Shown here in pieces: positions 8,068 to 35,343 of a stretch of 38,583 nt of DNA. Under the pieces are notes generated by a model. The model did no database searches, had not been told where the DNA came from, and saw only the letters and a list, made by a program, of their open reading frames with translations. The stretch lies in IMG/VR virus record IMGVR_UViG_3300025896_000023; one strand, written 5' to 3'. Made by a program: the position numbers and the translations under genes. Each line of letters starts with the position of its first letter. Position 1 is the first letter of the stretch. This DNA comes from a virus. Its lineage: Duplodnaviria; Heunggongvirae; Uroviricota; Caudoviricetes.

Positions 8068-8988
8068 ATGCAAATATTTGATAAAATATATATTATTAAT
8101 TTAAGTAATAATGTAGAAAGAAGAAACCATATTACAAATGAATTAAATGGAATTGGTTGGAATAATTATGAATTTATCGATGCAGTTAATGGCGCTGAAC
8201 TTCGGCCGATTACTGAATTAATTGGCAGCGGAATAGTATCCGATACATTTATAGATCCTAATGGTTTATTAACCAAAAATATTATAGCATGCGCGCATTC
8301 ACATAAGATTGCATATCAACGATTTTTAGATGATGGATACGATACTTGTTTAATTTTAGAAGATGATGCGACTATTACACCAATTGGATATAAATTTTTA
8401 TTAAATAATTTACATAAAAATATAAAAAATGAATTAGAAAAAATTGATTGGGATATTTTTGTATGGGGATTAGTAGGTGATAATATTCCAAATTATGGAC
8501 ATGTACCTGGAAGTAATATTTTAGTTGAATATAAGAAATATAGTCCAGATTGGGCAGGACATGCATACCAAATAAATAGAAAAGGAGCTCAAAAATTACT
8601 AAATAATAATACGCCTATACGATTTGCAGCGGATGTAAATTTAGAAACTGCAAATTGTAATATATTTGCAACATATTTTACATTAATCGCACAAACTGTA
8701 GGAAATTTCACTAAATTCGTATCCGACGATTTAATGGAATCATTTAAAAACACAATACACCAGGATCTATTTAATTCAGACACACTGAGTGTATTTGCTG
8801 ATAAATCTCCAATGAGTGGGCATACATCTCATGACATATACTTTAGCGCAGATCGTTCAATAAGATATGAATCTAGAAAATATATGTGTAATATTTCCAA
8901 AGATATTGATATTAAATCAGTTAGTTGGAAAACGTTTAAAGATGATGAAGGAACTGAATGTAAAAATTGGTGTTATATCAGTTTTTAA
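8068..8988 (+). CDS. Glycosyltransferase family 25 (Lex2/LgtB-like)
   Basis: KIYIINL...ERR...FIDAVNG...IACAHSH...CLILEDDA...GHAYQIN, the GT25 signature order. Confidence 0.85.
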   Translation: MQIFDKIYIINLSNNVERRNHITNELNGIGWNNYEFIDAVNGAELRPITELIGSGIVSDTFIDPNGLLTKNIIACAHSHKIAYQRFLDDGYDTCLILEDDATITPIGYKFLLNNLHKNIKNELEKIDWDIFVWGLVGDNIPNYGHVPGSNILVEYKKYSPDWAGHAYQINRKGAQKLLNNNTPIRFAADVNLETANCNIFATYFTLIAQTVGNFTKFVSDDLMESFKNTIHQDLFNSDTLSVFADKSPMSGHTSHDIYFSADRSIRYESRKYMCNISKDIDIKSVSWKTFKDDEGTECKNWCYISF

Positions 8989-9006: not shown

Positions 9007-9828
9007 ATGACATTAGATAGTATTAAATATATAGTCACAGTAGGCACATCATTCACTCACGGGGGTGGTTATGCCGAAGGTACAGATACTATTAAAATAT
9101 TAAATAAGTATGAAAATAACATTCCAAGTACACAGGAAGAATGTTCTTGGCCTGCCTTTTTAAAGAAATTAATCAAATCAGAAATTAAAATTTATAATTT
9201 GGCACTACCTGGTACTGGTATTGAATATTTGATTAGAACTACAAATGAATGGATTATGAAAAATGAGAATAAAGTTAAAGATACTTTATTTTTATTAGAA
9301 AATTCTGGATATGGACGAATTGAGTTATGGGATAATGAAGTAGAAAGATATGTTGTATGTAATTGGGATTATGGAGTTAGAAAGGATAATTTCTGTGTAT
9401 CTTTACATAATGGAATTTCTTGGAGAAATTCAAAAAAATTAAATGATAAAATAGGTAGTGGAGAGATACAAGTTGAAAAATTTCTAGATCGATATTGTTC
9501 ACCAATGCTTTTAATTGAGAATTTACAATCACAATTCTTTGACTTTCTATGCAAATTGAAATACCATGGTATTAATTTTAAAATATTTGGAGAACATTTT
9601 TATGATGAAAGCTTTCAAAATGATAATATAGTAAAAGGTAATAGACTTTATTTAAATGACAATAAAAATATTCAACATTGCGGAATATATCAATTCATTG
9701 CAGCTAATAAAGTTCAAATAAAAAATATTACAAATGGTGAGATTAATGATGACCATGCGTGCCTAGAAGGAAATAGACAAATTGCAGAACAGTATTATAA
9801 TCAACTTAAAGAATTATATAAACTATGA
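9007..9828 (+). CDS. SGNH/GDSL hydrolase-fold protein
   Basis: VTVGTSFTHG (block I), SWP, NLALPGTG (block II) and C-terminal DDHACLEGN (DxH-like). Confidence 0.7.
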   Translation: MTLDSIKYIVTVGTSFTHGGGYAEGTDTIKILNKYENNIPSTQEECSWPAFLKKLIKSEIKIYNLALPGTGIEYLIRTTNEWIMKNENKVKDTLFLLENSGYGRIELWDNEVERYVVCNWDYGVRKDNFCVSLHNGISWRNSKKLNDKIGSGEIQVEKFLDRYCSPMLLIENLQSQFFDFLCKLKYHGINFKIFGEHFYDESFQNDNIVKGNRLYLNDNKNIQHCGIYQFIAANKVQIKNITNGEINDDHACLEGNRQIAEQYYNQLKELYKL

Positions 9829-11498
9829 TACAGTTAGGAATTTCAGCATTCTATCATGATTCAGCGGCTTGTTTAATTAAAGATGGCAAGGTGTTAGGCG
9901 CTATTGAGGAAGAAAAGTTTACAGGAATAAAACACGATATGAATTTTCCAATCAATTCAATAAATTGGTTACTAAGTGAGTTTGAATGTAATACACATGA
10001 CATCAATGAAATATGCTGGTATGAAAATCCTGATCTTAAAAGGGATAGAATTTTATCTATTTTTAAAAAATATCCTATTAAAAACTTCTGGAATAGGATT
10101 AAATTCATAAAGAGACATAAAATCGAAGGAGATATCCATGCTATTTTAATTAAATATTTACAGTATGATGGTAAAGTTACGTATGTTTCTCATCATCTTT
10201 CGCATGCTGCTTTTTCATATTATACATCACCATTTAAAAAAGGTAAAACCATTATTGTTACAATAGATGGTGTTGGAGAGTGGGATACGAGCGCAGTTTA
10301 CCTTGCAGAAAATGGTAAAATTATTAATAAAGTAATTGAGACTACATTTCCCAATTCAATTGGAATGTTATATTCTACATTTACTGCATTCTTAGGATTT
10401 GCGCCTAATGAAGGAGAATATAAAGTAATGGGATTGGCAGGATATGGAAACAAGAGTAACAATCCATATTATAATAAAATAATGGAACTTATTACTCTTA
10501 ACAATGATGGTTCATTTGAGATAAATCAAAAATACTTTACATGGGAATATTCTGACAAAATCATGTTTAATGACTCTCTTTGTGAATATTTACAGTTATC
10601 ACCAAGGACAAAGGATACAGTAATTTCTACAGAATATATGGATTTGGCATATGCCATTCAAATGGTATATGAAAATGTATTTAGACATATTATTTCTACC
10701 ATGCATAAAAAATATGGAGTAACACAAATCTGTCTAGGTGGTGGATGCGCATATAATGGTATTGCAAATACAATCGCTTATGAATATTTTAAGAATGTGT
10801 GGATTCCATTTGCTCCATCTGATTCTGGTTCTGCAATTGGAGCATGTCTATCAATTAATAAAGAAATGATTGAAGTTTCTCCATATATAGGACCTAACTA
10901 TAAAGATTATGATTTAAGTGAAGATTTAATAAAGAAATCTAATTATATCACATGGAAACACATGAAAGAAGATGAAATTATAGAACAAGTTGCCAATGAT
11001 ATACATAAAGGTGATGTAATTGGGTGGTTTCAAGGTGCTATGGAATTTGGAGCAAGAGCACTTGGAAATAGGTCAATTTTAGCTTCTCCATTGGGAGAAC
11101 ACACTAAAGATAGACTGAATACCGTTATTAAGAAAAGAGAAGGATTTAGACCTTTTGCGCCAAGTTGCATTGAAGAAGAAGCTAATAATTTTTTTAATAT
11201 ACCTGAACCTGTTCCATATATGAATCAAATAGTACATGTAAAGGATAATAAAATGCCAGCAATAACACATGTAGATGGAACTGCTAGAGTTCAAACAGTA
11301 ACACAAAAACAGAATGATAAATATTATAGATTATTAAAAAAACTTGGAGAATTATCTGGATATCCTATTTGTTTAAATACTTCATTTAACTTTAAAGATC
11401 AAACGATAACGATGACCCCTGCACAGGCAATTGATAGATTTTTAGATTGCGAAATGGATAGTTTAGTTATCAATAATACATATATAACAAAAAAATGA
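9825..11498 (+). CDS. Carbamoyltransferase (NodU/CmcH family)
   Basis: GISAFYHDSAACL, EEKFTGIKHD, HHLSHAA, IDGVGE, EYKVMGLAGYG, FQGAMEFGARALGNRSILA, HVDGTARVQTV, LNTSFN. Confidence 0.93.
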   Translation: MIQLGISAFYHDSAACLIKDGKVLGAIEEEKFTGIKHDMNFPINSINWLLSEFECNTHDINEICWYENPDLKRDRILSIFKKYPIKNFWNRIKFIKRHKIEGDIHAILIKYLQYDGKVTYVSHHLSHAAFSYYTSPFKKGKTIIVTIDGVGEWDTSAVYLAENGKIINKVIETTFPNSIGMLYSTFTAFLGFAPNEGEYKVMGLAGYGNKSNNPYYNKIMELITLNNDGSFEINQKYFTWEYSDKIMFNDSLCEYLQLSPRTKDTVISTEYMDLAYAIQMVYENVFRHIISTMHKKYGVTQICLGGGCAYNGIANTIAYEYFKNVWIPFAPSDSGSAIGACLSINKEMIEVSPYIGPNYKDYDLSEDLIKKSNYITWKHMKEDEIIEQVANDIHKGDVIGWFQGAMEFGARALGNRSILASPLGEHTKDRLNTVIKKREGFRPFAPSCIEEEANNFFNIPEPVPYMNQIVHVKDNKMPAITHVDGTARVQTVTQKQNDKYYRLLKKLGELSGYPICLNTSFNFKDQTITMTPAQAIDRFLDCEMDSLVINNTYITKK

Positions 11499-12219: not shown

Positions 12220-13302
12220 ATGCGAAAAACGAAAAAAACGAATGCTATTTTAACATTAGTTGAAGAGGCTACTATACCTGGAACTTTGCATAATAACATG
12301 TATTTATTACAAAGATTGGTAGATAAAGGAAAATTGGAAGATTATCAAAGATTTATTACACAATTTCCAAATGGACAATTAGCAGCAATGTTACTTAAAT
12401 ATTTTGAAAGTCTGTCAGAGGATGAATCTGATATATTAGCAGATGCTCTATATTCGTTAGAAGGTCCTCATCAATTAACAAAAGAGTATTATGCTGACAG
12501 AAATAATGTATGGGGTAGAATGTTTGACATGCAGGTTAGAGGATCAGGAAAGGGAGAAGTAATAATTGCATGGCTAATAAAAAATTCAAGCATACAAGGA
12601 GGTACCGAATCATTTGATGTTTTAATTGAAGATAAAAAATATGAGGTAAAAGATTGGTCAAATCAAAAAAATTCATCAATATTGACTGGTGTGAAATCGA
12701 AGGTTTCTAATTTTGAATTTTGGAGAGAGATTGTAGATACTATTAGAAGATTAGATAAATTAACAGGATATTCAACATCGCCTAAGTTTAATTTTAAAGA
12801 TTATTTCGATGATGATATATGTAATTTGGTAGATATTATTTTAGAAAGACAAGGTATGATACTTTCTGGTGAATTTAATACAACAGATATTAAAAACTTT
12901 AAAAAATTCTATCAAAACATAAATTCTATTAATACTGAAATAATAGGATTTACAAATGTAATTCTTAGAGGACCTAATCAAGTTCCAATTGAATTAAGCA
13001 TTGATCCCATTCATTTAAAAGATATTTTAAATGAGTCATTAACAATACAAAGATCAAGCACTGATAATACATTTATTTATATTTTAACCGAACTGCGCAG
13101 ACTAAAGTATGCAAGAAATCCAGATGAACTGTACGCTGATATGCAATATGCTGTAAATAAAATAGTGGAAGGAATAACATATATTGTATATAGAGAAAAT
13201 CAAATTAATATAACATGTGACTTTGTGCCACATGCTGTGAGTATATCAAGTTTAAGATTTCTTGAAAAAAGTATAGCTACCAAACATATAATTGATATAT
13301 AA
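12220..13302 (+). CDS. Hypothetical protein with possible PD-(D/E)xK nuclease core
   Basis: GSGKGEV...FDVLIEDKKYEVKD fits an E...D-x(n)-E-x-K arrangement. Confidence 0.45.
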   Translation: MRKTKKTNAILTLVEEATIPGTLHNNMYLLQRLVDKGKLEDYQRFITQFPNGQLAAMLLKYFESLSEDESDILADALYSLEGPHQLTKEYYADRNNVWGRMFDMQVRGSGKGEVIIAWLIKNSSIQGGTESFDVLIEDKKYEVKDWSNQKNSSILTGVKSKVSNFEFWREIVDTIRRLDKLTGYSTSPKFNFKDYFDDDICNLVDIILERQGMILSGEFNTTDIKNFKKFYQNINSINTEIIGFTNVILRGPNQVPIELSIDPIHLKDILNESLTIQRSSTDNTFIYILTELRRLKYARNPDELYADMQYAVNKIVEGITYIVYRENQINITCDFVPHAVSISSLRFLEKSIATKHIIDI

Positions 13303-13305
13303 ATA
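13294..13305 (+). promoter_or_regulatory. Late-type promoter (GATATATA overlapping T4-like TATAAATA)
   Basis: GATATATAAATA upstream of the internal-head-protein cluster. Confidence 0.55.
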
Positions 13306-13323
13306 TAAATTATATGTAATCAT

Positions 13324-13506
13324 ATGAGTCAAGAAGAATGGAATGTATATATTGATACTGGATTTGTTCCTCATTATTTTATAAAAGAAATAGTGGAGAG
13401 TATTAAACTTGGCCATGTGTTAACACCCAAGCACTTACAAATCTATATTACACATAGCCAAATAATAGAAATATATCTAAACACGAAAAACGATGAAAAA
13501 AATTAA
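13324..13506 (+). CDS. Hypothetical protein (60 aa)
   Basis: ORF between the late-type motif and an overlapping next gene. Confidence 0.55.
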   Translation: MSQEEWNVYIDTGFVPHYFIKEIVESIKLGHVLTPKHLQIYITHSQIIEIYLNTKNDEKN

Positions 13507-14275
13507 ATTATTCGAAGAATTTATTAATGAAATTAAAGGAAGAAATAACACAGATCCTGAAGAAATAATAGATGATATTAACTCTAGAGTTAACTTTGGA
13601 AGTGCTGCAATCAAAGACACTAAAGATGGACCGTCTATTGTTATTTACCTTGATAAAAAATCTGAAAATCATAGTACAATAGTAAAAGAACTTGAAAAAA
13701 TATATACTGATGCTATTAAATATGAAAAAGGCAACTCAAGTAAAGATATCATTGTCTTTAGAATCAATGAAGAATTTGTTAATGAAATTAATATAGAAGA
13801 TACCGAAATAACAGAAACTATATCTGAATTTTATGAATTGCAGATGCAAATCTTACAACTACAATCTGAGTTAAAACAAAAACAGGCGCAGTTTAAAAAG
13901 TTTGATACAAATATTCAACCAATAATCGATGGAATGAAAGAAACTGGTGATAAGTTAGGGGTTACTGAAAAGTATGTTGTAAAGGTTTCAAGATTTGGAT
14001 ATGAAAGAACTACTGCATCATATAAAGATGCGTTTGAATTAGCGCTATCTAAAGTAAATGGAGCTACTCAAAAAATATTAAAGGAAGCGTTAGTTGCAAC
14101 CGAAAAGGTAGGAAGTGTTGCAAATTCATACACGATTGACCAAATGAATGAAGCGAATATTTTTCAAAAGATTATATCAACGTTAAAGGATATTTCCAGT
14201 AAATTTGTTAATATGTTTAAAAAGGAATCTAAAAATATTGATGCTGCAAATAATGATTTAAAAAAAATAGTATAA
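13493..14275 (+). CDS. Putative internal head protein with capsid-targeting-like leader MKKIKLFEEFINE
   Basis: Leader shared by five neighbours; internal INEEFVNE and QMNE|A motifs; coiled coil. Confidence 0.65.
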   Translation: MKKIKLFEEFINEIKGRNNTDPEEIIDDINSRVNFGSAAIKDTKDGPSIVIYLDKKSENHSTIVKELEKIYTDAIKYEKGNSSKDIIVFRINEEFVNEINIEDTEITETISEFYELQMQILQLQSELKQKQAQFKKFDTNIQPIIDGMKETGDKLGVTEKYVVKVSRFGYERTTASYKDAFELALSKVNGATQKILKEALVATEKVGSVANSYTIDQMNEANIFQKIISTLKDISSKFVNMFKKESKNIDAANNDLKKIV

Positions 14276-14826
14276 TGAAAAAAATTAAACTATTCGAAGA
14301 ATTTATGAATGAATCAGTAAATGAAAAGAAAGCAGCATATGATTACGGATGTGCAATGATATACTTTGAATTTCCAGAAATGGAAGATATTCACGTTAAA
14401 ATAGAGAAAGATGATGTATTTGTGGATCCTAAAGATTCTACATTTGGACTAGAAACTGAACCGCATTGCACATTATTATATGGATTACATGCTGATGTGG
14501 CTCTTAACACTATTAAAAAAATAGTAGATGGATTTGAATTTGGTGAATGTACTATTAAAGAGGCTTCACTTTTTGAAAATGAAAAATTTGATGTACTTAA
14601 ATTTGATGTAACTGGAAGTGGATTACACGATTGCAATTCTGCTTTATCAAAATTACCACATACTACTGATTATCCTAACTACCATCCACATATGACAGTG
14701 GCATACCTTAAAAATGGTATGGGTAAAAAATATGTAGATTTATTAGGAACTGAAGAAAGAACCTTAAAACCATCATATATTGTTTATAGCCAACCTGATG
14801 GTACCAAAACCAAGATATCTTTATAA
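14275..14826 (+). CDS. 2H phosphoesterase (Acb1/T4 57B-like) with capsid-targeting-like leader
   Basis: Two HxT motifs, EPHCTLLYG and YHPHMTVAY; leader MKKIKLFEEFMNESVNE. Confidence 0.75.
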   Translation: MKKIKLFEEFMNESVNEKKAAYDYGCAMIYFEFPEMEDIHVKIEKDDVFVDPKDSTFGLETEPHCTLLYGLHADVALNTIKKIVDGFEFGECTIKEASLFENEKFDVLKFDVTGSGLHDCNSALSKLPHTTDYPNYHPHMTVAYLKNGMGKKYVDLLGTEERTLKPSYIVYSQPDGTKTKISL

Positions 14827-14828
14827 GA

Positions 14829-14836
14829 GATATATA
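14829..14836 (+). promoter_or_regulatory. Late-type promoter element GATATATA
   Basis: Sits immediately after the 14826 stop, 26 nt before the next ATG. Confidence 0.45.
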
Positions 14837-14861
14837 AATGTAATAAACATAAAACAATATA

Positions 14862-15794
14862 ATGAAAAGAGTAAAGTTATTTGAAGAATTTATAAATGAA
14901 TCTAAAGGATTAGAATTAGTACATGCATATGATAAAGATGGTACGATGTATGGTACTGGAGAACTTGTTAAAAAACAAGGTTCAAAATCTTTAATTAGAT
15001 TTGACAGTGAAACTGAAAAATGGTTTGACAATAAAGACATTAAATTAGTAGAATCTAAATATAATGGAAATGTTGCCGGTGATGCCGCTGAATATATTGC
15101 TAAAGAATTATCGCAATACGTTAAAGGTATTATAAACCAATCTAATAATAATGTTACTTATTTTCATTTAAAAGATAAATCATATAAATCTAAAGTTATT
15201 AAAACCCTAAAGGATATTTATGGTTTAGATGCACAAGATGGTGGAACTCAATTCTCACCTTCACCAACTATCAAATTTGATAATGACGTAATATTGGAAT
15301 CAAATATCGACGAAGCTACTACATCTTGGAGTAAAATGATGAAAGGTGTTAAGGGTGGAGATGGTGGACCTTGGAGTTTGGTTGCTATTGAATATGGAAA
15401 AGTAGTTGGTCAAAAAAATAGCATAAAGGTTAGAGACATATTACCTGCTGAATTTGAAGAATTTCGTAAACAATTTCCAAAGGCAAAAATTCATATTGAA
15501 GATGCTGGCGGTGGAGTAGTTTGGAATGAATCTATTGTTAATGAAGCTCAAATCGGAGATAAATTAACTAAGAAATTTACAGAAGAAACTGGAATCTCAG
15601 TATGGGACAAAGTAACTTTAAAATCAGAATCTGGAATTTGGGTCGTTGCAAGATTATGGGCACCAAAGGATGATGGTGGTATGAATCCTGGTTTACATAT
15701 TGAATTAACTAAAGGTAGTTCAAGAGAACACTTTCAGGTAATGGATGATAATGGAAATTTAAGCCAATTTGGAAAAGAAATCACAAAGAAATAA
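14862..15794 (+). CDS. Putative modular internal head (poly)protein, leader MKRVKLFEEFINE
   Basis: Leader plus internal xxE|S/A junctions: LVE|S, ILE|SNIDE|A, WNE|SIVNE|A. Confidence 0.65.
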   Translation: MKRVKLFEEFINESKGLELVHAYDKDGTMYGTGELVKKQGSKSLIRFDSETEKWFDNKDIKLVESKYNGNVAGDAAEYIAKELSQYVKGIINQSNNNVTYFHLKDKSYKSKVIKTLKDIYGLDAQDGGTQFSPSPTIKFDNDVILESNIDEATTSWSKMMKGVKGGDGGPWSLVAIEYGKVVGQKNSIKVRDILPAEFEEFRKQFPKAKIHIEDAGGGVVWNESIVNEAQIGDKLTKKFTEETGISVWDKVTLKSESGIWVVARLWAPKDDGGMNPGLHIELTKGSSREHFQVMDDNGNLSQFGKEITKK

Positions 15795-16060
15795 TGAAAC
15801 ACATTAAATTATACGAGGAATTTGTAAATGAAAAAGAATTTACAGAGGATCAAAGAAAAGAATTAGCAAGTAAAGGATTTGCATTGCCAGATGGAAGCTT
15901 TCCAATCGAAAATGTAGAAGATCTTAAGAATGCAATTCAAGCATATGGTAGAGCAGGAGACCAATCTGCAGCCGCAAAACATATTGCAAAACGCGCAAAG
16001 GCATTAGGACAAGAAGATCTAATACCAACCAGTGATGATTTTCAAAAAAGTTTAAAATAA
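15794..16060 (+). CDS. Putative internal head protein, leader MKHIKLYEEFVNE
   Basis: Leader plus a compact ALPDGSFPI...DLKNAIQAYGRA...HIAKRAKALG domain of a type I recall from other phage proteins. Confidence 0.65.
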   Translation: MKHIKLYEEFVNEKEFTEDQRKELASKGFALPDGSFPIENVEDLKNAIQAYGRAGDQSAAAKHIAKRAKALGQEDLIPTSDDFQKSLK

Positions 16061-16062
16061 GT

Positions 16063-16572
16063 ATGAAAAAAGTAAGATTATACGAAGAATTCATTAATGA
16101 ATCAAAGGATGTATTTCCAAATGAAATCATAGGAAATGATAATATTCTTTTTAAGAAGGAGTGGGAAAAAATGAATGGTGGTAAACTTGCTGCCAAATAT
16201 AACCAATATTTTAAAGGTTATGATATTGATACAGGTGGACGTATCTTTAATACAGTAGATCAGTTAGAAAAATATATAAAAGCTACTGAACTTTCAAATA
16301 ATCAATATAACAAATATAAGTATATGCCAGAGATTCCAATTAAAGAATCTTTAGATGAAGCAGATGGTAGAGATACTCTAGGTGAATTACAAGAAATGGC
16401 ATTAGGTCAACTTGAAAGAATAGCAGACTATGCAAATATGATTAAAGAACGTATAAATGGTGGAGAATCTCTAGAATCATGGATGTTTTCTCAATTAACT
16501 ATTTCTTTAGAAAATCTAAATGCAATACATGATTCAATGGACGGTAACGATAAAAACCCAAACGATAATTAA
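16063..16572 (+). CDS. Putative internal head protein, leader MKKVRLYEEFINE
   Basis: Leader, internal IKE|SLDE|A junction, C-terminal MALGQLERIADYA...LESWMFSQ helical module. Confidence 0.65.
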   Translation: MKKVRLYEEFINESKDVFPNEIIGNDNILFKKEWEKMNGGKLAAKYNQYFKGYDIDTGGRIFNTVDQLEKYIKATELSNNQYNKYKYMPEIPIKESLDEADGRDTLGELQEMALGQLERIADYANMIKERINGGESLESWMFSQLTISLENLNAIHDSMDGNDKNPNDN

Positions 16573-16574
16573 TT

Positions 16575-16796
16575 ATGAAAAAACTAATCTTAGCAATCCT
16601 ATTACTATCAACACTTAGTTGTGCAACTGTATTCCATAATGGACCAATCACAGAATATCAAAGAACCAAACCTCAAACAGGAGAACCTCAAAGAAAGGTA
16701 AAGGTATTACCACTAGTGGCAGACTTAATTATTTTCTGGCCAGCAACTGTGGTAGATTTTGCAACAGGTGCAATATACTTACCAAAAGAAAAATAG
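16575..16796 (+). CDS. Small lipoprotein / membrane protein
   Basis: Signal peptide MKKLILAILLLSTLS-C (lipobox) and hydrophobic LVADLIIFWPATVVDFATGAIY. Confidence 0.7.
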   Translation: MKKLILAILLLSTLSCATVFHNGPITEYQRTKPQTGEPQRKVKVLPLVADLIIFWPATVVDFATGAIYLPKEK

Positions 16797-16818: not shown

Positions 16819-16845
16819 AAGGGATCCCCAACAGGATCCCTTTTT
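16819..16845 (+). terminator. Rho-independent terminator ending the late operon
   Basis: AAGGGATCC-CCAACA-GGATCCCTT followed by TTT. Confidence 0.8.
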
Positions 16846-24897: not shown

Positions 24898-26868
24898 ATG
24901 TCTAAGAAAACAAATACACCTTTCATCGATCAATTCGGAGAAGATTTAACTAAAATGGCAAGTGAAGGTAAATTGGATCCTATCATCGGTAGGGAAAAGG
25001 AAGTTTATCGTATATGTCAAATTCTTTCAAGAAGAAAGAAAAACAATCCTATTATTTTAGGAGATCCAGGGGTTGGTAAAACTGCATTAGTGGAAGCCAT
25101 TGCTCAGCGAATTGTTGATAAACAAGTTGCAATGACTCTTCTTAATAAGAGAATCGTTTCGCTTAATATTTCAAATATAGTCGCTGGTACAAAATACCGT
25201 GGCGAATTTGAGGAACGCATGAAAAATATAGTGGATGAATTAAAAGAAAATAGAGATGTTATTGTCTTTATCGACGAAATTCATACCATTGTAGGTGCAG
25301 GTGGTGTTAGTGGATCTTTAGATGCTAGTAATATACTAAAACCTGCGCTAGCAAGAGGACAGGTACAATGTATTGGCGCAACCACATTGGATGAGTATAG
25401 AGAAAATATTGAAAAGGATGGTGCACTTACCAGAAGATTTCAAGAAGTTTTTATAGATCCACCCTCAATTGAAGATACTATTGAAATTCTTAATAGAATT
25501 AAACCTAATTATGAAGATTATCATGCAGTATCGTATAGCGACGAGGCAATAAAGGCATGTGTTACTTTATCTGAAAGATATATTACACAAAGAGAATTAC
25601 CAGATAAAGCCATTGATGTAATGGATGAGGCAGGTGCAAAGGTACATTTAAAGGAGGTTAAAATACCAGAAAGTATTAAAGAACTTGAAATTGAAGCTGA
25701 AAAGTATAAGGCATCTAAATTAATTGCAGTTGAACAACAGGACTACGAGAAAGCTGGTAAATTTAGAGATTTAGAATTAGCAAAAAAAGAAGAAATCCAA
25801 ACTTCAACAAAGGAATGGGAAACTTCTTTACGCGATAATAAAAAACAGGTAACTTACGAAGATATTGCTGAAACTATTTCACAAACTACTGGAATTCCAA
25901 TTACAAGAATGACTGACGATGAAAATAGAATCATTGTTGAAATGGAAAAGGAATTAAAATCCATGATTATCGGTCAGGATCTTGCGGTTGAAGGATTATG
26001 TAGAGTTATTAAAAGAAGTAGAACAGGTGTAAGTTCATCTAAAAAACCAATTGGATCATTTATGTTTATTGGACCTACAGGGGTAGGTAAAACTGAAATG
26101 GTTAAAGCTTTAACTGAATATTATTTTGGAAGTGAAGAGGCATTGATTAGAATCGATATGTCAGAATATCAGGAAAAATTCAATGTAAGTAGACTGATAG
26201 GTTCTCCTCCAGGATATGTTGGATATGAAGAAGGAGGACAACTAACAGAACAAGTTCGTCGCAAACCATATTCGGTAGTATTATTTGATGAGGTTGAGAA
26301 AGCACATCCAGATATTTTTAATACATTACTACAGGTATTAGATGAAGGTAGATTAACAGATACATCCGGTAGAATAATTGATTTTACAAATACTATTATT
26401 ATTATGACTTCAAATATTGGTGCTAAGCGAGTTGCAGAGTTCGGGGCAGGAATCGGGTTTAATAGTACTACATCATCATCATCTCATAAGATGGAAATGG
26501 AAACAGTTATTAGAAAAGAACTTAAAAATAAGTTTGCTCCAGAATTTTTGAATAGATTAGATGATATTGTTTTATTTGATGGATTAAAACAAGAACATGT
26601 ATTACAAATTGCAGATATTGAAATTAATAAAGTAATTGAAAGAATGGCATCACAAGACTATTCAATTAAACTTACAAAAACTGCCATGATTTTCTTAGCA
26701 GAAAAAGGATATGATGCACAATATGGTGCTAGGCCATTAAAAAGAGCAGTACAAACTTACGTTGAAGATTTATTAGCAGATTCTATTATTATGGGACAAG
26801 TTATTAAAGGTTCTAAGGTATATACCATTTCGCATAAAAAAGGAGATGAGAAACTTTCCATAAAGTAA
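24898..26868 (+). CDS. clpC: ClpC-type AAA+ unfoldase lacking the N-terminal domain
   Basis: Starts at TPFIDQFGEDLT...GKLDPIIGRE. NBD1 GDPGVGKT / FIDEIH, UVR-like M-domain (VEQQDYEKAGKFRD), NBD2 GPTGVGKT / LFDEVEKAH, IGF loop (GIGF), GARPLKR. Confidence 0.9.
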   Translation: MSKKTNTPFIDQFGEDLTKMASEGKLDPIIGREKEVYRICQILSRRKKNNPIILGDPGVGKTALVEAIAQRIVDKQVAMTLLNKRIVSLNISNIVAGTKYRGEFEERMKNIVDELKENRDVIVFIDEIHTIVGAGGVSGSLDASNILKPALARGQVQCIGATTLDEYRENIEKDGALTRRFQEVFIDPPSIEDTIEILNRIKPNYEDYHAVSYSDEAIKACVTLSERYITQRELPDKAIDVMDEAGAKVHLKEVKIPESIKELEIEAEKYKASKLIAVEQQDYEKAGKFRDLELAKKEEIQTSTKEWETSLRDNKKQVTYEDIAETISQTTGIPITRMTDDENRIIVEMEKELKSMIIGQDLAVEGLCRVIKRSRTGVSSSKKPIGSFMFIGPTGVGKTEMVKALTEYYFGSEEALIRIDMSEYQEKFNVSRLIGSPPGYVGYEEGGQLTEQVRRKPYSVVLFDEVEKAHPDIFNTLLQVLDEGRLTDTSGRIIDFTNTIIIMTSNIGAKRVAEFGAGIGFNSTTSSSSHKMEMETVIRKELKNKFAPEFLNRLDDIVLFDGLKQEHVLQIADIEINKVIERMASQDYSIKLTKTAMIFLAEKGYDAQYGARPLKRAVQTYVEDLLADSIIMGQVIKGSKVYTISHKKGDEKLSIK

Positions 26869-26903: not shown

Positions 26904-27758
26904 ATGAATAGCTTTTCAAGGGTCTTCACAAAAATAATATCGGATATTAAAGTAAATGGAAAGGTCTCTAAACCCAGAGACCTTGAAGTTTCCGAATTAA
27001 TGTATAATGGATACGCAGTAAATCCTACCCAACCTATTGCAAATTTTAATAGTAGAGAATTCAATTGGAAATACTTTGCAGGTGAATTGGTATGGTATTT
27101 GAATAAAGATACAGATATAGATTACATCAATCAATTTTCAGGATTTTGGAAAGGTATTACAAATCCAAACACAAACGAAATTAATTCTAATTATGGTTCT
27201 CTTCTTTTTGGTGAACAACTTCAATGGGTTACGGATTCACTTAAAAAAGATAAAAATACAAGACAAGCAATTGCTTTCTTAAATCAACCTAAGTATCAAT
27301 TTGAAGGTAATAAGGATTTCGTATGTACGATGTATCTTAATTTTTCTATTAGAGAAGATAAATTAGATATGAAAGTGCAAATGAGATCTAATGACATTTT
27401 TTATGGCCTTACATTTGACGCACCTTTCTTTGCAGTAGTACATCAACATGTTTATCTTTGGTTAAAGTCAACATATCCAGAATTAACGTTAGGAACTTAT
27501 TATCATTTTGCGGATAATATTCATTTTTATGAGAGACATTATGAACTTGCTGAGAAAATAGTGCATGAGGCGTTACATCAAGATCAATATATTATGGAAT
27601 TAAAAAAACCATTATTTACAATTGAAAATAGTAATATGTTAATAACTGATCATGGTATTAACATGATACATAATATAAATAAAGGTATTGAAATTGATGC
27701 GAATAAAGATTATTATAATAATATATTAGCAGAATACCTTAATATAAAAAGAGTATGA
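26904..27758 (+). CDS. Thymidylate synthase-fold enzyme, T4 gp42-like dCMP hydroxymethylase candidate
   Basis: EINSNYG, DFVCT (catalytic Cys), MRSNDIFYGLTFD with Asp where ThyA has Asn177, and HFYERH. Confidence 0.8.
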   Translation: MNSFSRVFTKIISDIKVNGKVSKPRDLEVSELMYNGYAVNPTQPIANFNSREFNWKYFAGELVWYLNKDTDIDYINQFSGFWKGITNPNTNEINSNYGSLLFGEQLQWVTDSLKKDKNTRQAIAFLNQPKYQFEGNKDFVCTMYLNFSIREDKLDMKVQMRSNDIFYGLTFDAPFFAVVHQHVYLWLKSTYPELTLGTYYHFADNIHFYERHYELAEKIVHEALHQDQYIMELKKPLFTIENSNMLITDHGINMIHNINKGIEIDANKDYYNNILAEYLNIKRV

Positions 27759-28053: not shown

Positions 28054-28725
28054 ATGAATTACGGAAAAGAATTTGAAAAATACGCAATGAGTGACCATGG
28101 TGTTAGCTCAATGAATTTACATTATGCAAAAAAGAATTTAGAAAATTCAATGACTCCATATATTTTAGAAGAGAGAGAATTGAGGGTTACTCAAATGGAT
28201 ATTTTTTCAAGATTAATGATGGATAGATTATTATGGGTTGCAGGAACTGTAAATGATAATATGTCAACCGTTGTTCAAGCACAATTAATGTTTTTAGATT
28301 CAGTAGATACTAGAGATATTACAATGCACATTGATTCAGGAGGGGGGAGTGTAAAGTCTGGACTTTCTATGGTAGATGTTATGGAATATATTAAATCTGA
28401 TATACGTACGGTCAACACAGGAATGGCCGCCTCTATGGGTTCTGTATTATTAGGAGCTGGAACTAAAGGCAAGAGAAGTTCACTAAGACACTCTACCACT
28501 ATGTTACACCAATCTTCGGGAGGATTCAGCGGAAATATCCAAGACGCTGAAATTGACTGGGCAGAATGGCAAAAGGTTAACAAAGAATTATTTAATCTTT
28601 TAGGACAATACTGCGGTAAAAAACCAGATCAAGTTATGAAAGATGCTACAAGAGATATGTGGTTAAACGCAGAAGAGGCATTGAAATATGGAATCATCGA
28701 TGAAATTATAATTAGTAAAAGATAA
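28054..28725 (+). CDS. clpP: ATP-dependent Clp protease proteolytic subunit
   Basis: TQMDIFSRLMMDR, IDSGGGSV, GMAASMGSVLL (Ser), MLHQ (His), RDMWLNAEEALKYGIIDEI (Asp). Confidence 0.93.
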   Translation: MNYGKEFEKYAMSDHGVSSMNLHYAKKNLENSMTPYILEERELRVTQMDIFSRLMMDRLLWVAGTVNDNMSTVVQAQLMFLDSVDTRDITMHIDSGGGSVKSGLSMVDVMEYIKSDIRTVNTGMAASMGSVLLGAGTKGKRSSLRHSTTMLHQSSGGFSGNIQDAEIDWAEWQKVNKELFNLLGQYCGKKPDQVMKDATRDMWLNAEEALKYGIIDEIIISKR

Positions 28726-33379: not shown

Positions 33380-34576
33380 ATGAATATAGGAATTACAATA
33401 GGGTTAACCAAGGAAAATGAATCTCTTTGGATTAACGGAATTAAACTAAATGCGTTATATTTAGCAAATACCCTATTAAGTATAGGGGAACATAATGTAT
33501 GGATCTTAGATACCTCCGATAAAGTAGAGGATCTTACAAAAGTACAATGGGACACTAACAAATTTAAAATATTTAAATTTAAAGAAAAATTTAAAGAAAT
33601 AGATTTGCTTATAACATTAGGTACTTCAATTCCAGAAAATTGGTCAAATGCAATAAAAACTGCAAATCCAAATGCTAAGATAGTAAAATATCAATGCGGT
33701 AATAACTATGTCGTAGATATGGAAAGAGTTTTATTCGGAGATCCCAATGCTGAAGGAATTCCATCATGGGATAAAGGGCATGATGAAACATGGACCATCC
33801 CACAGCAAGAACACCACAATAAAGAATACTTTCAATTAATATATAGACAAAATCCAAAGGATGTTAAAATAGTTCCATTCGTATGGGATCCTATGTTTAT
33901 AGATAGAAATAGCGAAATACTTAAATCGCTTGGAAAGAAAAATCCAAAATATACACCTAAACCAATATCTGAAAAGAAAATTTCAGTAATGGAACCAAAT
34001 TTAAATGTTGTAAAATACGCTCTTATACCTATTATGATCGTTGAGGCATTCTTTAGAAAACTTGGAGAAAATTCATTTAAACAACTATATGTTGGAAGCG
34101 GTAATAAGTTATTAAAACATAAATATTTTCTAGGAATGATTAAAAACCTAGATATCGTAAATAGAAAAAATCCACTTATCAAATTTGTACCAAGATATCC
34201 TGTGACTACCTTTTTAGCTGAAGAAACTGATATTGTACTTGCACATCAATGGGGAAATCCATTAAATTATTCGTATTTGGATGCAATTCATTTCGGCTAT
34301 CCAGTGGTGCATAACGCTGATTTTATAAAAGATGGTGGATATTATTATAAGGACTTTTCAATATTTGGAGGAATGGAACAATTAGATATTGCAATAAATC
34401 AGCATGACAACAGTATAGAGGAATACAGAGAAAAGAATAAAAAGGTATTAGATAGATACTTATCAACTAATCCTGATGTTGTAGATACATATAGAAAATT
34501 AATAGAGAATTTATGGGATCCTAATAAACATAAATTATCATACAAATATAACTGGAAAACAAACACATATAAATAA
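33380..34576 (+). CDS. DUF2827-like putative glycosyltransferase
   Basis: IGITI...SLWINGIKLNA, ISVMEPNLNVVK, LAHQWGNPLNYSYLDAIHFGYPVVHN. Confidence 0.7.
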   Translation: MNIGITIGLTKENESLWINGIKLNALYLANTLLSIGEHNVWILDTSDKVEDLTKVQWDTNKFKIFKFKEKFKEIDLLITLGTSIPENWSNAIKTANPNAKIVKYQCGNNYVVDMERVLFGDPNAEGIPSWDKGHDETWTIPQQEHHNKEYFQLIYRQNPKDVKIVPFVWDPMFIDRNSEILKSLGKKNPKYTPKPISEKKISVMEPNLNVVKYALIPIMIVEAFFRKLGENSFKQLYVGSGNKLLKHKYFLGMIKNLDIVNRKNPLIKFVPRYPVTTFLAEETDIVLAHQWGNPLNYSYLDAIHFGYPVVHNADFIKDGGYYYKDFSIFGGMEQLDIAINQHDNSIEEYREKNKKVLDRYLSTNPDVVDTYRKLIENLWDPNKHKLSYKYNWKTNTYK

Positions 34577-35343
34577 TGAGTGAATTATCAAATTTAATGG
34601 AATCAATCGATAAACAAAAAATATCGATAATCATGCAATCTTATCTTGGAGATTATCCAGGTTCTAGAACAGATGCTATATCTAAATTTAGAAGAGCAGT
34701 AAAAAGTTTTCAAAATCAATTATATAAAAATTGTGAATTGATTATAGTGGCAGATGGTTGTACTAAAACACACCAGATTTACACCAGAGAATTCAAAAAC
34801 GATCCTTCAATTAAATTCATATTCGTAGATAAAGATACCCCACACATGTACGAATTAAACGAGGATGGACATAAATATTATAGAGGATTTCCACGAAGGG
34901 TTGGAGTTGGTGCTGCAACAGGGGCTTTAATAACATATATGGATTCCGACGATTTTCTAATGCCAGAGTTTACATTAACATTATTACTAACGTATAATAT
35001 GAATACTGATTTAGAATGGTGGATTAACACCGAGTGGTATGATAATGAAAACGCCAAATGGGAAGATAACAATGTAATCTTTGGAAGTAATCATGATGAA
35101 GATATAGAAATAGAAGGTATTCCGGGAAAATGGACAAAAACATCAGTAAAACCAGGCATGGCAGTTTTAAGTCCATGGTTATTAATGCACAAGGCGTCAT
35201 GTACTACCAAATGGAGAGATGTTATAGGAAATAGTGAAGATTCTGATTTCAATAAAAGACTTAGAACCGATTATAAAAACGGTACTGTACTTAATAAACC
35301 AATATATGTGCGATGCCATTATAGAGACGTATGGGATATTTAA
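34576..35343 (+). CDS. Glycosyltransferase family 2
   Basis: ISIIMQSY...SFQNQLYKNCELIIVADG...GVGAATGALITYMDSDD...SEDSDF. Confidence 0.85.
   Translation: MSELSNLMESIDKQKISIIMQSYLGDYPGSRTDAISKFRRAVKSFQNQLYKNCELIIVADGCTKTHQIYTREFKNDPSIKFIFVDKDTPHMYELNEDGHKYYRGFPRRVGVGAATGALITYMDSDDFLMPEFTLTLLLTYNMNTDLEWWINTEWYDNENAKWEDNNVIFGSNHDEDIEIEGIPGKWTKTSVKPGMAVLSPWLLMHKASCTTKWRDVIGNSEDSDFNKRLRTDYKNGTVLNKPIYVRCHYRDVWDI

Follow-up and report, generated by a model that had tools for sequence, protein, structure and literature searches.

A shared 13-residue leader on gene arrays of uncultured jumbo phages resembles the T4 capsid targeting sequence and may mark proteins packaged in the phage head

The IMG/VR virus record IMGVR_UViG_3300025896_000023 (Caudoviricetes) comprises 38,583 nucleotides, and this whole stretch of DNA is hereafter referred to as the window. 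Five consecutive open reading frames (ORFs) on its + strand, spanning positions 13493-16572, open with a common 13-residue leader of the form MK[KRH][IV][KR]L[FY]EEF[IMV]NE (hereafter, the tag). The individual leaders of ORF1 to ORF5 are, in ORF order, MKKIKLFEEFINE, MKKIKLFEEFMNE, MKRVKLFEEFINE, MKHIKLYEEFVNE and MKKVRLYEEFINE. Beyond residue 13 the five proteins are mutually unrelated, in agreement with an earlier sequence-only reading of this DNA, in which five adjacent, unrelated proteins with a common leader were described. A degenerate DNA pattern of the tag returned 5 matches in the window versus 0.00 in 100 dinucleotide-preserving shuffles, and the pattern was absent from the rest of the window outside the five ORF starts. 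Since the five DNA copies differ from one another at synonymous sites (TTC/TTT, GAA/GAG, ATT/ATA/GTA and AAA/AGA), it is the peptide, and not the nucleotide string, that is under selection. A short leader common to otherwise unrelated proteins, one trait of capsid targeting sequence (CTS) proteins of the T4 type, is present on all five ORFs (5/5). The array and its immediate surroundings are composed of the following features.

13294..13304, + strand: late-type promoter-like motif GATATATAAAT; overlaps the end (stop codon) of the upstream gene (12220-13302)
13324-13506: small ORF of 60 aa, MSQEEWNVYIDTGFVPHYFIKEIV.., between the first late-type motif and ORF1, with a 14-nt overlap with the ORF1 start
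13493..14275, + strand: ORF1, 260 aa; tag (13493-13531), an N-terminal module and a C-terminal helical module
14275..14826, + strand: ORF2, 183 aa; tag (14275-14313), then a predicted 2H phosphoesterase (Acb1-like)
14829..14839, + strand: second late-type promoter-like motif GATATATAAAT, beginning 33 nt before the ORF3 start codon
14862..15794, + strand: ORF3, 310 aa; tag (14862-14900), then 3 or 4 small modules
15794..16060, + strand: ORF4, 88 aa; tag (15794-15832), then a domain of the pattern ALPDGSFPI..DLKNAI..GRA..HI.KRAKALG
16063..16572, + strand: ORF5, 169 aa; tag (16063-16101), then two modules joined after SLDE99, the second beginning with Ala
16575..16796, + strand: gene without tag, 73 aa, whose product bears a lipoprotein-like signal (MKKLILAILLLSTLSC); the final gene of the tagged unit
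16819..16842, + strand: terminator-like GC hairpin with a T run, which closes the tagged unit

The late-type motifs to which the sequence-only reading referred are the copies of GATATATAAAT at 13294 and 14829. The small ORF at 13324-13506 carries no tag; a homologue is found at locus L113:20091-20267. ORF1, ORF3 and ORF5 returned no recognisable family from Pfam or PHROG, and no convincing fold match was obtained for ORF3 in the PDB.

The tag was compared with the leaders of the internal proteins of phage T4. The CTS concept and CTS-like leaders are established in T-even phages (PMC9026906, PMC3012670), and the first ten residues of IPIII are enough for encapsidation (PMC9026906). Mutagenesis of the T4 CTS has assigned residues 4 and 7 to targeting and residues 8 and 10 to processing, and Asp at position 10 prevents cutting (PMC9026906). 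In the T4 record (NC_000866.4), ipII and ipIII begin MKTYQEFIAE/A (here and below a slash marks the junction), which is the T4 CTS as it had been quoted in the sequence-only reading, and ipI begins MKTFKEFTST. The logo of 214 distinct tagged proteins reads M-K-H-I-K-L-[FY]-E-[EQD]-F-[IVL]-N-E. Its most conserved positions are 7 (Phe in 157 proteins, Tyr in 57), 10 (Phe in 203, Tyr in 10, Trp in 1), 11 (Ile, Val, Leu or Met in 212) and 13 (Glu in 211, Asp in 3). Conservation drops abruptly past Glu13; in 62% of the proteins a small residue (Ala, Ser or Gly) follows at position 14.

Positions 7, 10, 11 and 13 of the tag match residues 4, 7, 8 and 10 of the T4 CTS exactly in spacing and chemistry. 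Both leaders begin with MK and, judged as sequence patterns, both place two aromatic residues three apart ahead of a hydrophobic-x-Glu, followed mostly by Ala or Ser; both stand on otherwise unrelated small proteins whose genes are clustered. The tag differs in having 13 residues instead of 10, through a three-residue insert (VKL or IKL). Leaders that bridge the two forms are also found. The first gene of the array in a complete relative (G001, described below) begins MKTVKLFEEFLAE followed by Ser, which corresponds to the T4 CTS with three inserted residues, and a gene of a further relative, G004, begins MKTFNEFIIDE/S. From these comparisons the tag is likely to be homologous to the T4 CTS, from which it would have diverged and grown longer, a judgement made jointly with that on the packaging explanation as a whole, which is set out below.

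A pattern scan of IMG/VR identified at least 100 stretches with the tag, and every match lay at a true ORF start. The same pattern returned 1 match in 185,579 prokaryote genomes (one genome per species). That sole match (L137:3640-3678) is on JACPMZ010000011.1, a 40-kb scaffold of a 'Woesearchaeota' metagenome-assembled genome (MAG); the scaffold probably represents phage DNA that was binned with an archaeal genome. Given at least 100 virus stretches versus this single match, the tag is a feature of viruses and not a general host N-terminus. The sequence-only reading had proposed a scan of relatives and had taken the tag to be portable across diverse cargo. The scan catalogued at least 214 distinct tagged proteins in the fetched IMG/VR loci and, with the tag removed, these fall into at least 91 cargo clusters by single linkage, which upholds the portability. 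A literature search with the tag motif strings returned the T4 CTS only, and no paper with this motif was found.

The most informative relative is G001 (IMGVR_UViG_3300012346_000380), a sequence of 256,444 bp with direct terminal repeats, rated complete, that is syntenic with most of the window at 64-87% nucleotide identity; genomes resembling it are frequent in IMG/VR. Among its approximately 341 called genes, 20 are tagged (~6%); 14 of these form a single array (193.2-200.3 kb) in the part of the genome that is syntenic with the window, and in all the tagged genes are spread over at least 7 separate places. Other large contigs carry 5-20 tagged genes each, and a control pattern gave 0 matches. 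The uncultured megaphage LR756502.1 (642 kb) has 1 tag match. A third variant of the leader, MKYI(K/L)EYEEF(V/L)xE, is found on 12 genes, on both strands, of LR756500.1 (462 kb, uncultured); the capsid protein of this phage (region in L120) is 51% identical to that of G001.

The closest cultured capsid relatives are those of Tenacibaculum and Flavobacterium phages and of the Lak and other megaphages, and the window phage is therefore a distant T4-like jumbo phage, with hosts probably of the Flavobacteria type. The window itself has ~30% G+C and encodes a 1752-aa collagen-like fibre protein, a carbamoyltransferase, a thymidylate-synthase-like protein, a Clp ATPase and ClpP. The carbamoyltransferase is of NodU type (9825-11498) and, together with the thymidylate-synthase-fold enzyme (26904-27758) and glycosyltransferases (8068-8988 and 34576-35343), suggests hypermodification of DNA bases. 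The Clp ATPase is a ClpA/B-like double-AAA protein of 656 aa (24898-26868) and ClpP comprises 223 aa (28054-28725); both are also kept in G001, G002 and G004.

The partners that a T4-type CTS would require are encoded by relatives that bear the tag, as they are by T4. A Peptidase_S77 (gp21-type) prohead protease was identified in 9/9 large tag-bearing contigs tested, G001 included, and a major capsid protein of the gp23 family in 3/4 searched contigs, the fourth of which (G004) is a 74%-complete fragment. The capsid gene adjoins the protease gene in G001, G002 and G003. The N-terminal domain of the G001 protease matches a prohead core protease (PDB code: 5jbl) and is fused to an acidic scaffold-like region, giving a protein of 604 aa. 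Such fusion of protease to scaffold (~600-650 aa) is a departure from T4, as are the hosts, which are probably of Flavobacteria type. A conserved L(K/N)RVNE/[AS][FY]GF ends the protease domain of the protease-scaffold proteins, and many [IL]AE/S motifs are found in the scaffold part.

Several tagged proteins are composed of more than one module, and the boundaries between modules appear to have been drawn by the same rule as the end of the tag. In ORF3 two junctions read ..ESNIDE151/A152TTSW (junction at 15306-15314) and ..ESIVNE228/A229QIGD (junction at 15537-15545), and in ORF5 the junction reads ..KESLDE99/A100DGRD (16351-16359). At each of these points, stand-alone tagged homologues in other phages begin directly behind their tag: the modules of ORF3 that start ATTSW and AQIGDKL both occur alone behind a tag, and the C-terminal module of ORF5 stands alone behind the tag in L020 and G001. 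In ORF1 a full tag remnant, EEFVNE98/I (13769-13786), precedes the C-terminal helical module. The internal hydrophobic-x-E junctions that had been noted in the sequence-only reading are thus recovered in ORF3 and ORF5, together with the remnant in ORF1.

To count such joints, boundaries were defined by BLAST alone, as the points within longer proteins where alignments to stand-alone proteins set in with the residue directly behind the tag. Hydrophobic-x-Glu directly precedes 18/20 distinct internal boundaries, against a background of 3.1% in the same proteins (p = 1.6e-25); the loci behind this and the other statistics given here share ancestry, and the p-values therefore overstate independence. 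Most of these 18 read ..ES-hydrophobic-(x)-N-E/A. The joints retain the 'processing' half of the tag, while the aromatic 'targeting' residues are gone. This pattern is as would be expected if one leader loads the whole chain and the protease then cuts the chain up. In the AlphaFold2 (AF2) model of ORF3 the modules are compact, with low-confidence linkers at residues 59-71 and 127-154; the second junction falls in a predicted helix.

A second lineage provides a further comparison. The complete 245-kb contig G008, which encodes a short, more T4-like gp21, is devoid of the tag. Its ATTSW module and P-loop kinase nevertheless begin at the same residue as their tagged counterparts, behind other leaders (MIKLTDLISE/ATTSW and MIKLKDLLNSNILNE/GVDD). 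The second-lineage leader, MIKL[KT]DL[IL][NS]E, is present on only 3-4 genes (G008 L115:10052-11446; L117:10236-12389), of which a strict pattern recovers one gene per genome and a reading of the ORFs 3-4 looser copies. A fixed cargo boundary combined with a lineage-specific leader is as would be expected for a signal that fits its own scaffold, although few genes are concerned.

The promoter context of the tagged genes was examined in G001 and in 100 IMG/VR loci from which duplicates had been removed. The late-type motif of the window also precedes head genes of G001: as GATATATAA it is located 12-81 nt ahead of the protease-scaffold gene (51569-53383), of a 561-aa capsid-adjacent gene and of several very large genes of structural size, and 123 nt ahead of the capsid gene. 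The early-type motif TATATTTAC is found 24-41 nt upstream of 28 mostly small G001 genes. Across the loci this early-type motif precedes 0/195 tagged versus 56/805 untagged genes (p = 6e-6), and the comparison supports a late-type, not early-type, context for the tagged genes. The sole untagged gene within the 14-gene G001 array (196126 region, L112:7589-8086) encodes a HAD-like nucleotidase with its own early-type TATATTTAC, and looks like an insertion with different timing. The tagged cargo has a median length of 136 aa and is poor in membrane-like segments, which are present in 4/214 tagged versus 91/805 untagged proteins (p = 2e-6).

The nature of the cargo could be assigned in part. ORF2 matches Pfam 2_5_RNA_ligase2 (1.6e-6, 28.7 bits, above the cut-off of 27) and, less well, Pfam Acb1 (8.7e-5, 22.7 bits, below the cut-off of 27). 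Its HCTL and HMTV motifs are invariant in 12 homologues. The AF2 model (predicted template modelling score, pTM, 0.81) leaves residues 1-18, which comprise the tag and a short linker, outside the fold with a predicted local distance difference test (pLDDT) below 50. The top Foldseek matches of the model are phage Acb1-type phosphodiesterases (PDB codes: 9q2g, 9q2y and 7t26; probability 1.00), with a poxvirus cGAMP phosphodiesterase also returned, and a profile search against the PDB Acb1 entries gave E = 0.06-0.08 only. The model is that of a 2H fold with the two HxT/S motifs. Because the Pfam Acb1 cut-off is missed, we refer to ORF2 as a 2H phosphoesterase, Acb1-like, rather than as Acb1. The 2H fold and HxT dyads match those of Acb1 (T4 gp57B), which in T4 is a cytoplasmic anti-defence protein.

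Altogether 766 longer proteins contain the ORF4 domain. Three of them were checked (P0013, P0012 and P0005), and in these it is combined with a region matching head-maturation-protease and portal-fusion PHROGs, and P0013 carries two copies of the domain after the head-maturation-protease-matching region. The long proteins with this domain had no Pfam match, and ORF4 itself weakly matches phrog_80. The company kept by the domain would give a further, separate link between this cargo family and the inside of the head.

In relatives, the tagged proteins include a GNAT acetyltransferase, a kinase of zeta-toxin/AAA_33 type, an ATP-grasp protein and a DUF5824 protein. The first gene of the G001 array (L112:3935-4699, corresponding to G001 199513-200277), which carries the most T4-like leader, MKTVKLFEEFLAE, matches Pfam Tad3 (PF25185) with E = 8e-19. 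Tad3 has been described as an inhibitor of the Thoeris sensor ThsB (PMC13728456) and is, like Acb1, a cytoplasmic anti-defence protein; the G001 protein is a candidate for a pre-packaged inhibitor of type I Thoeris. For the known Acb1 and Tad3 members no capsid-targeting leader has been reported; in T4, 57B lies beside ipI without a CTS.

In the T4 genome (NC_000866.4, 73591-75374; L122) ipI directly adjoins 57B, which encodes the Acb1 2H phosphodiesterase, near gene 1, which encodes a kinase. In the tag phages a 2H phosphodiesterase and a kinase are both tagged members of the array. A common origin of the T4 gene 1-57A-57B-ipI block and the array was considered and rejected: the tagged P-loop kinase resembles gp1 in the P-loop only (E ~1), and the similarity of ORF2 to T4 57B is confined to the surroundings of the second HxT motif. 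With non-homologous kinases, the likeness of the two neighbourhoods may be a coincidence.

The explanation we favour for the tag is capsid targeting, cleavage and ejection. The tagged genes would be transcribed late, and the leader aromatics at positions 7 and 10 would let each product dock on the scaffolding core as the prohead assembles. The prohead protease, a Peptidase_S77 of gp21 type, would then cut after Glu13 of the hydrophobic-Asn-Glu and, in the multi-module products of ORF1, ORF3 and ORF5, after the internal ..ES-hydrophobic-x-E sites as well. The small soluble proteins so freed in the head would exit with the DNA at the next infection. Taken as a whole, this explanation appears to us clearly the probable one, and it is supported by comparison and not by experiment.

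Several observations weigh against it. Docking, cleavage, packaging and ejection are steps that we infer and, in a further departure from T4, the tag is known here from sequence alone. The S77 protease of the window phage itself is likewise deduced from its syntenic relative G001; IMG/VR gave no 100% match to the window, and an exact 46-mer taken from it had 0 matches in the metagenome collection. The cultured relatives tested, Tenacibaculum phages PTm1 and pT24 and Flavobacterium phage MaF61, gave 0 tag matches, and ~20 cargo proteins per genome far exceeds the three internal proteins of T4. The late-type motif precedes 19/195 tagged versus 47/805 untagged genes, a marginal difference (p = 0.054). 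The N-terminus of the capsid protein, MAQLINE/AEI, looks like a tag-type site but was dropped as evidence for the specificity of the protease, because in an alignment with T4 gp23 it falls where the propeptide begins and not at the cleavage site Glu65/Ala66. The few tagged proteins with membrane-like segments also fit poorly; these are not fatal, since in phage SPN3US the ejection protein gp47 is processed and still has a transmembrane segment once mature (PMC5694885).

A shared 5' end could alternatively serve as a recombination or expression cassette, for the swapping of genes and for translation in hosts that lack Shine-Dalgarno sites, with a peptide that targets nothing. Modules have clearly been shuffled at the tag and at tag remnants, and whole tags are kept inside fused genes (EEFVNE98 of ORF1; P0067), so that the tag is clearly a site of shuffling as well. 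A cassette does not account for synonymous variation in the DNA beneath a preserved peptide, for conservation that falls on the key residues of the T4 CTS and ends sharply at Glu13, or for internal junctions that retain the 'processing' half only. Recombination at the tag is moreover compatible with CTS function and accompanies it in T-even phages. We consider the cassette improbable as the full explanation, though it survives better than the other alternatives.

Slightly less probable again is a role of the tag as a degron or unfolding signal for the phage Clp system, which would time protein removal without any part in the capsid. N-terminal Clp recognition motifs are known in bacteria, the Clp ATPase and ClpP are both encoded in the window at the positions given above, and ClpP is found in 4/5 tag-bearing genomes tested, which counts for a degron and against packaging. 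In G003, by contrast, 5 tags are found with no ClpP match in a genome that is only 75% complete. A degron would leave unexplained why the tag agrees residue by residue with the functionally mapped T4 CTS, why hydrophobic-x-Glu holds at the module junctions and recurs at the protease-scaffold junction, and why the leader is swapped in a lineage with a different gp21.

Least probable of all is that another phage-encoded partner recognises the leader, be it an enzyme (for example a modifying one) or a structure (for example an assembly other than the capsid). The ATP-grasp protein and GNAT among the tagged proteins might suggest this, but no untagged enzyme is a consistent neighbour of the arrays, the tagged genes of G001 are spread over 7 or more places, and the S77 protease, to whose family the Glu-type site at the end of the tag belongs, is the only partner found in every genome tested.

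The packaging explanation places the tag among several known routes into the phage head. T4 itself has counter-defence proteins among its cargo, as IPI* blocks GmrSD, and its Alt ADP-ribosyltransferase is an enzyme that is loaded into the head via a short gp21-cut propeptide and delivered with the DNA (PMC9026906). The 7-residue propeptide of Alt is its own, however, and a single case, whereas here one common leader stands on many enzymes (2H phosphodiesterase, GNAT, P-loop kinase and ATP-grasp), a class of cargo by which the tagged set differs from that of the T4 CTS. The two systems also differ in scale, with ~20 tagged genes per genome (~6% of genes) against 3 in T4, and in the many tagged cargoes that are multi-module chains with internal processing-type sites. 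In the giant phages SPN3US and phiKZ many ejection proteins are internal to the head and cut after Glu by a T4-related prohead protease (PMC5694885, PMC7411985), and the propeptides are removed by this gp21-related protease at (S/A/G)-x-E (PMC5694885, PMC7411985). Unlike the tag, those propeptides are mostly longer than 100 residues and share no single portable peptide, and SPN3US and phiKZ are not of the gp23 capsid lineage found in the tag-bearing phages. What is new here is the scale, with ~6% of genes tagged, together with chains of several modules that have processing-type joints, cargo of enzymatic and counter-defence types, and the occurrence in a distant T4-like lineage with a different host phylum.

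A broader reading, which we put forward tentatively and somewhat short of calling it probable, is that of a general delivery system, in which ~20 products per genome are loaded into the head, chains are cut at their joints, and a counter-defence kit enters the cell before phage gene expression. Such a kit would comprise the Acb1-like phosphodiesterase, the Tad3-like inhibitor, the kinase, the acetyltransferase and dozens of unknowns. If this is true, the tag would be a computational marker for new injected anti-defence proteins.

With the multi-module chains, the T4 principle of one protein per tag would be widened to several proteins per tag, and the swap of the leader between lineages offers a natural experiment on the matching of leader to scaffold. 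A second CTS from an unrelated host would also widen the set of protein-packaging tools, which are now T4-based. At least 91 cargo families are represented, most of them without known function, and two of the few that can be named are known counter-defence families; the tagged set therefore narrows the search for proteins at work in the first seconds of an infection, the time at which signalling defences such as CBASS and Thoeris are triggered. If the tagged proteins are packaged, the leader would mark, from sequence alone, the injected proteome of widespread uncultured aquatic jumbo phages.

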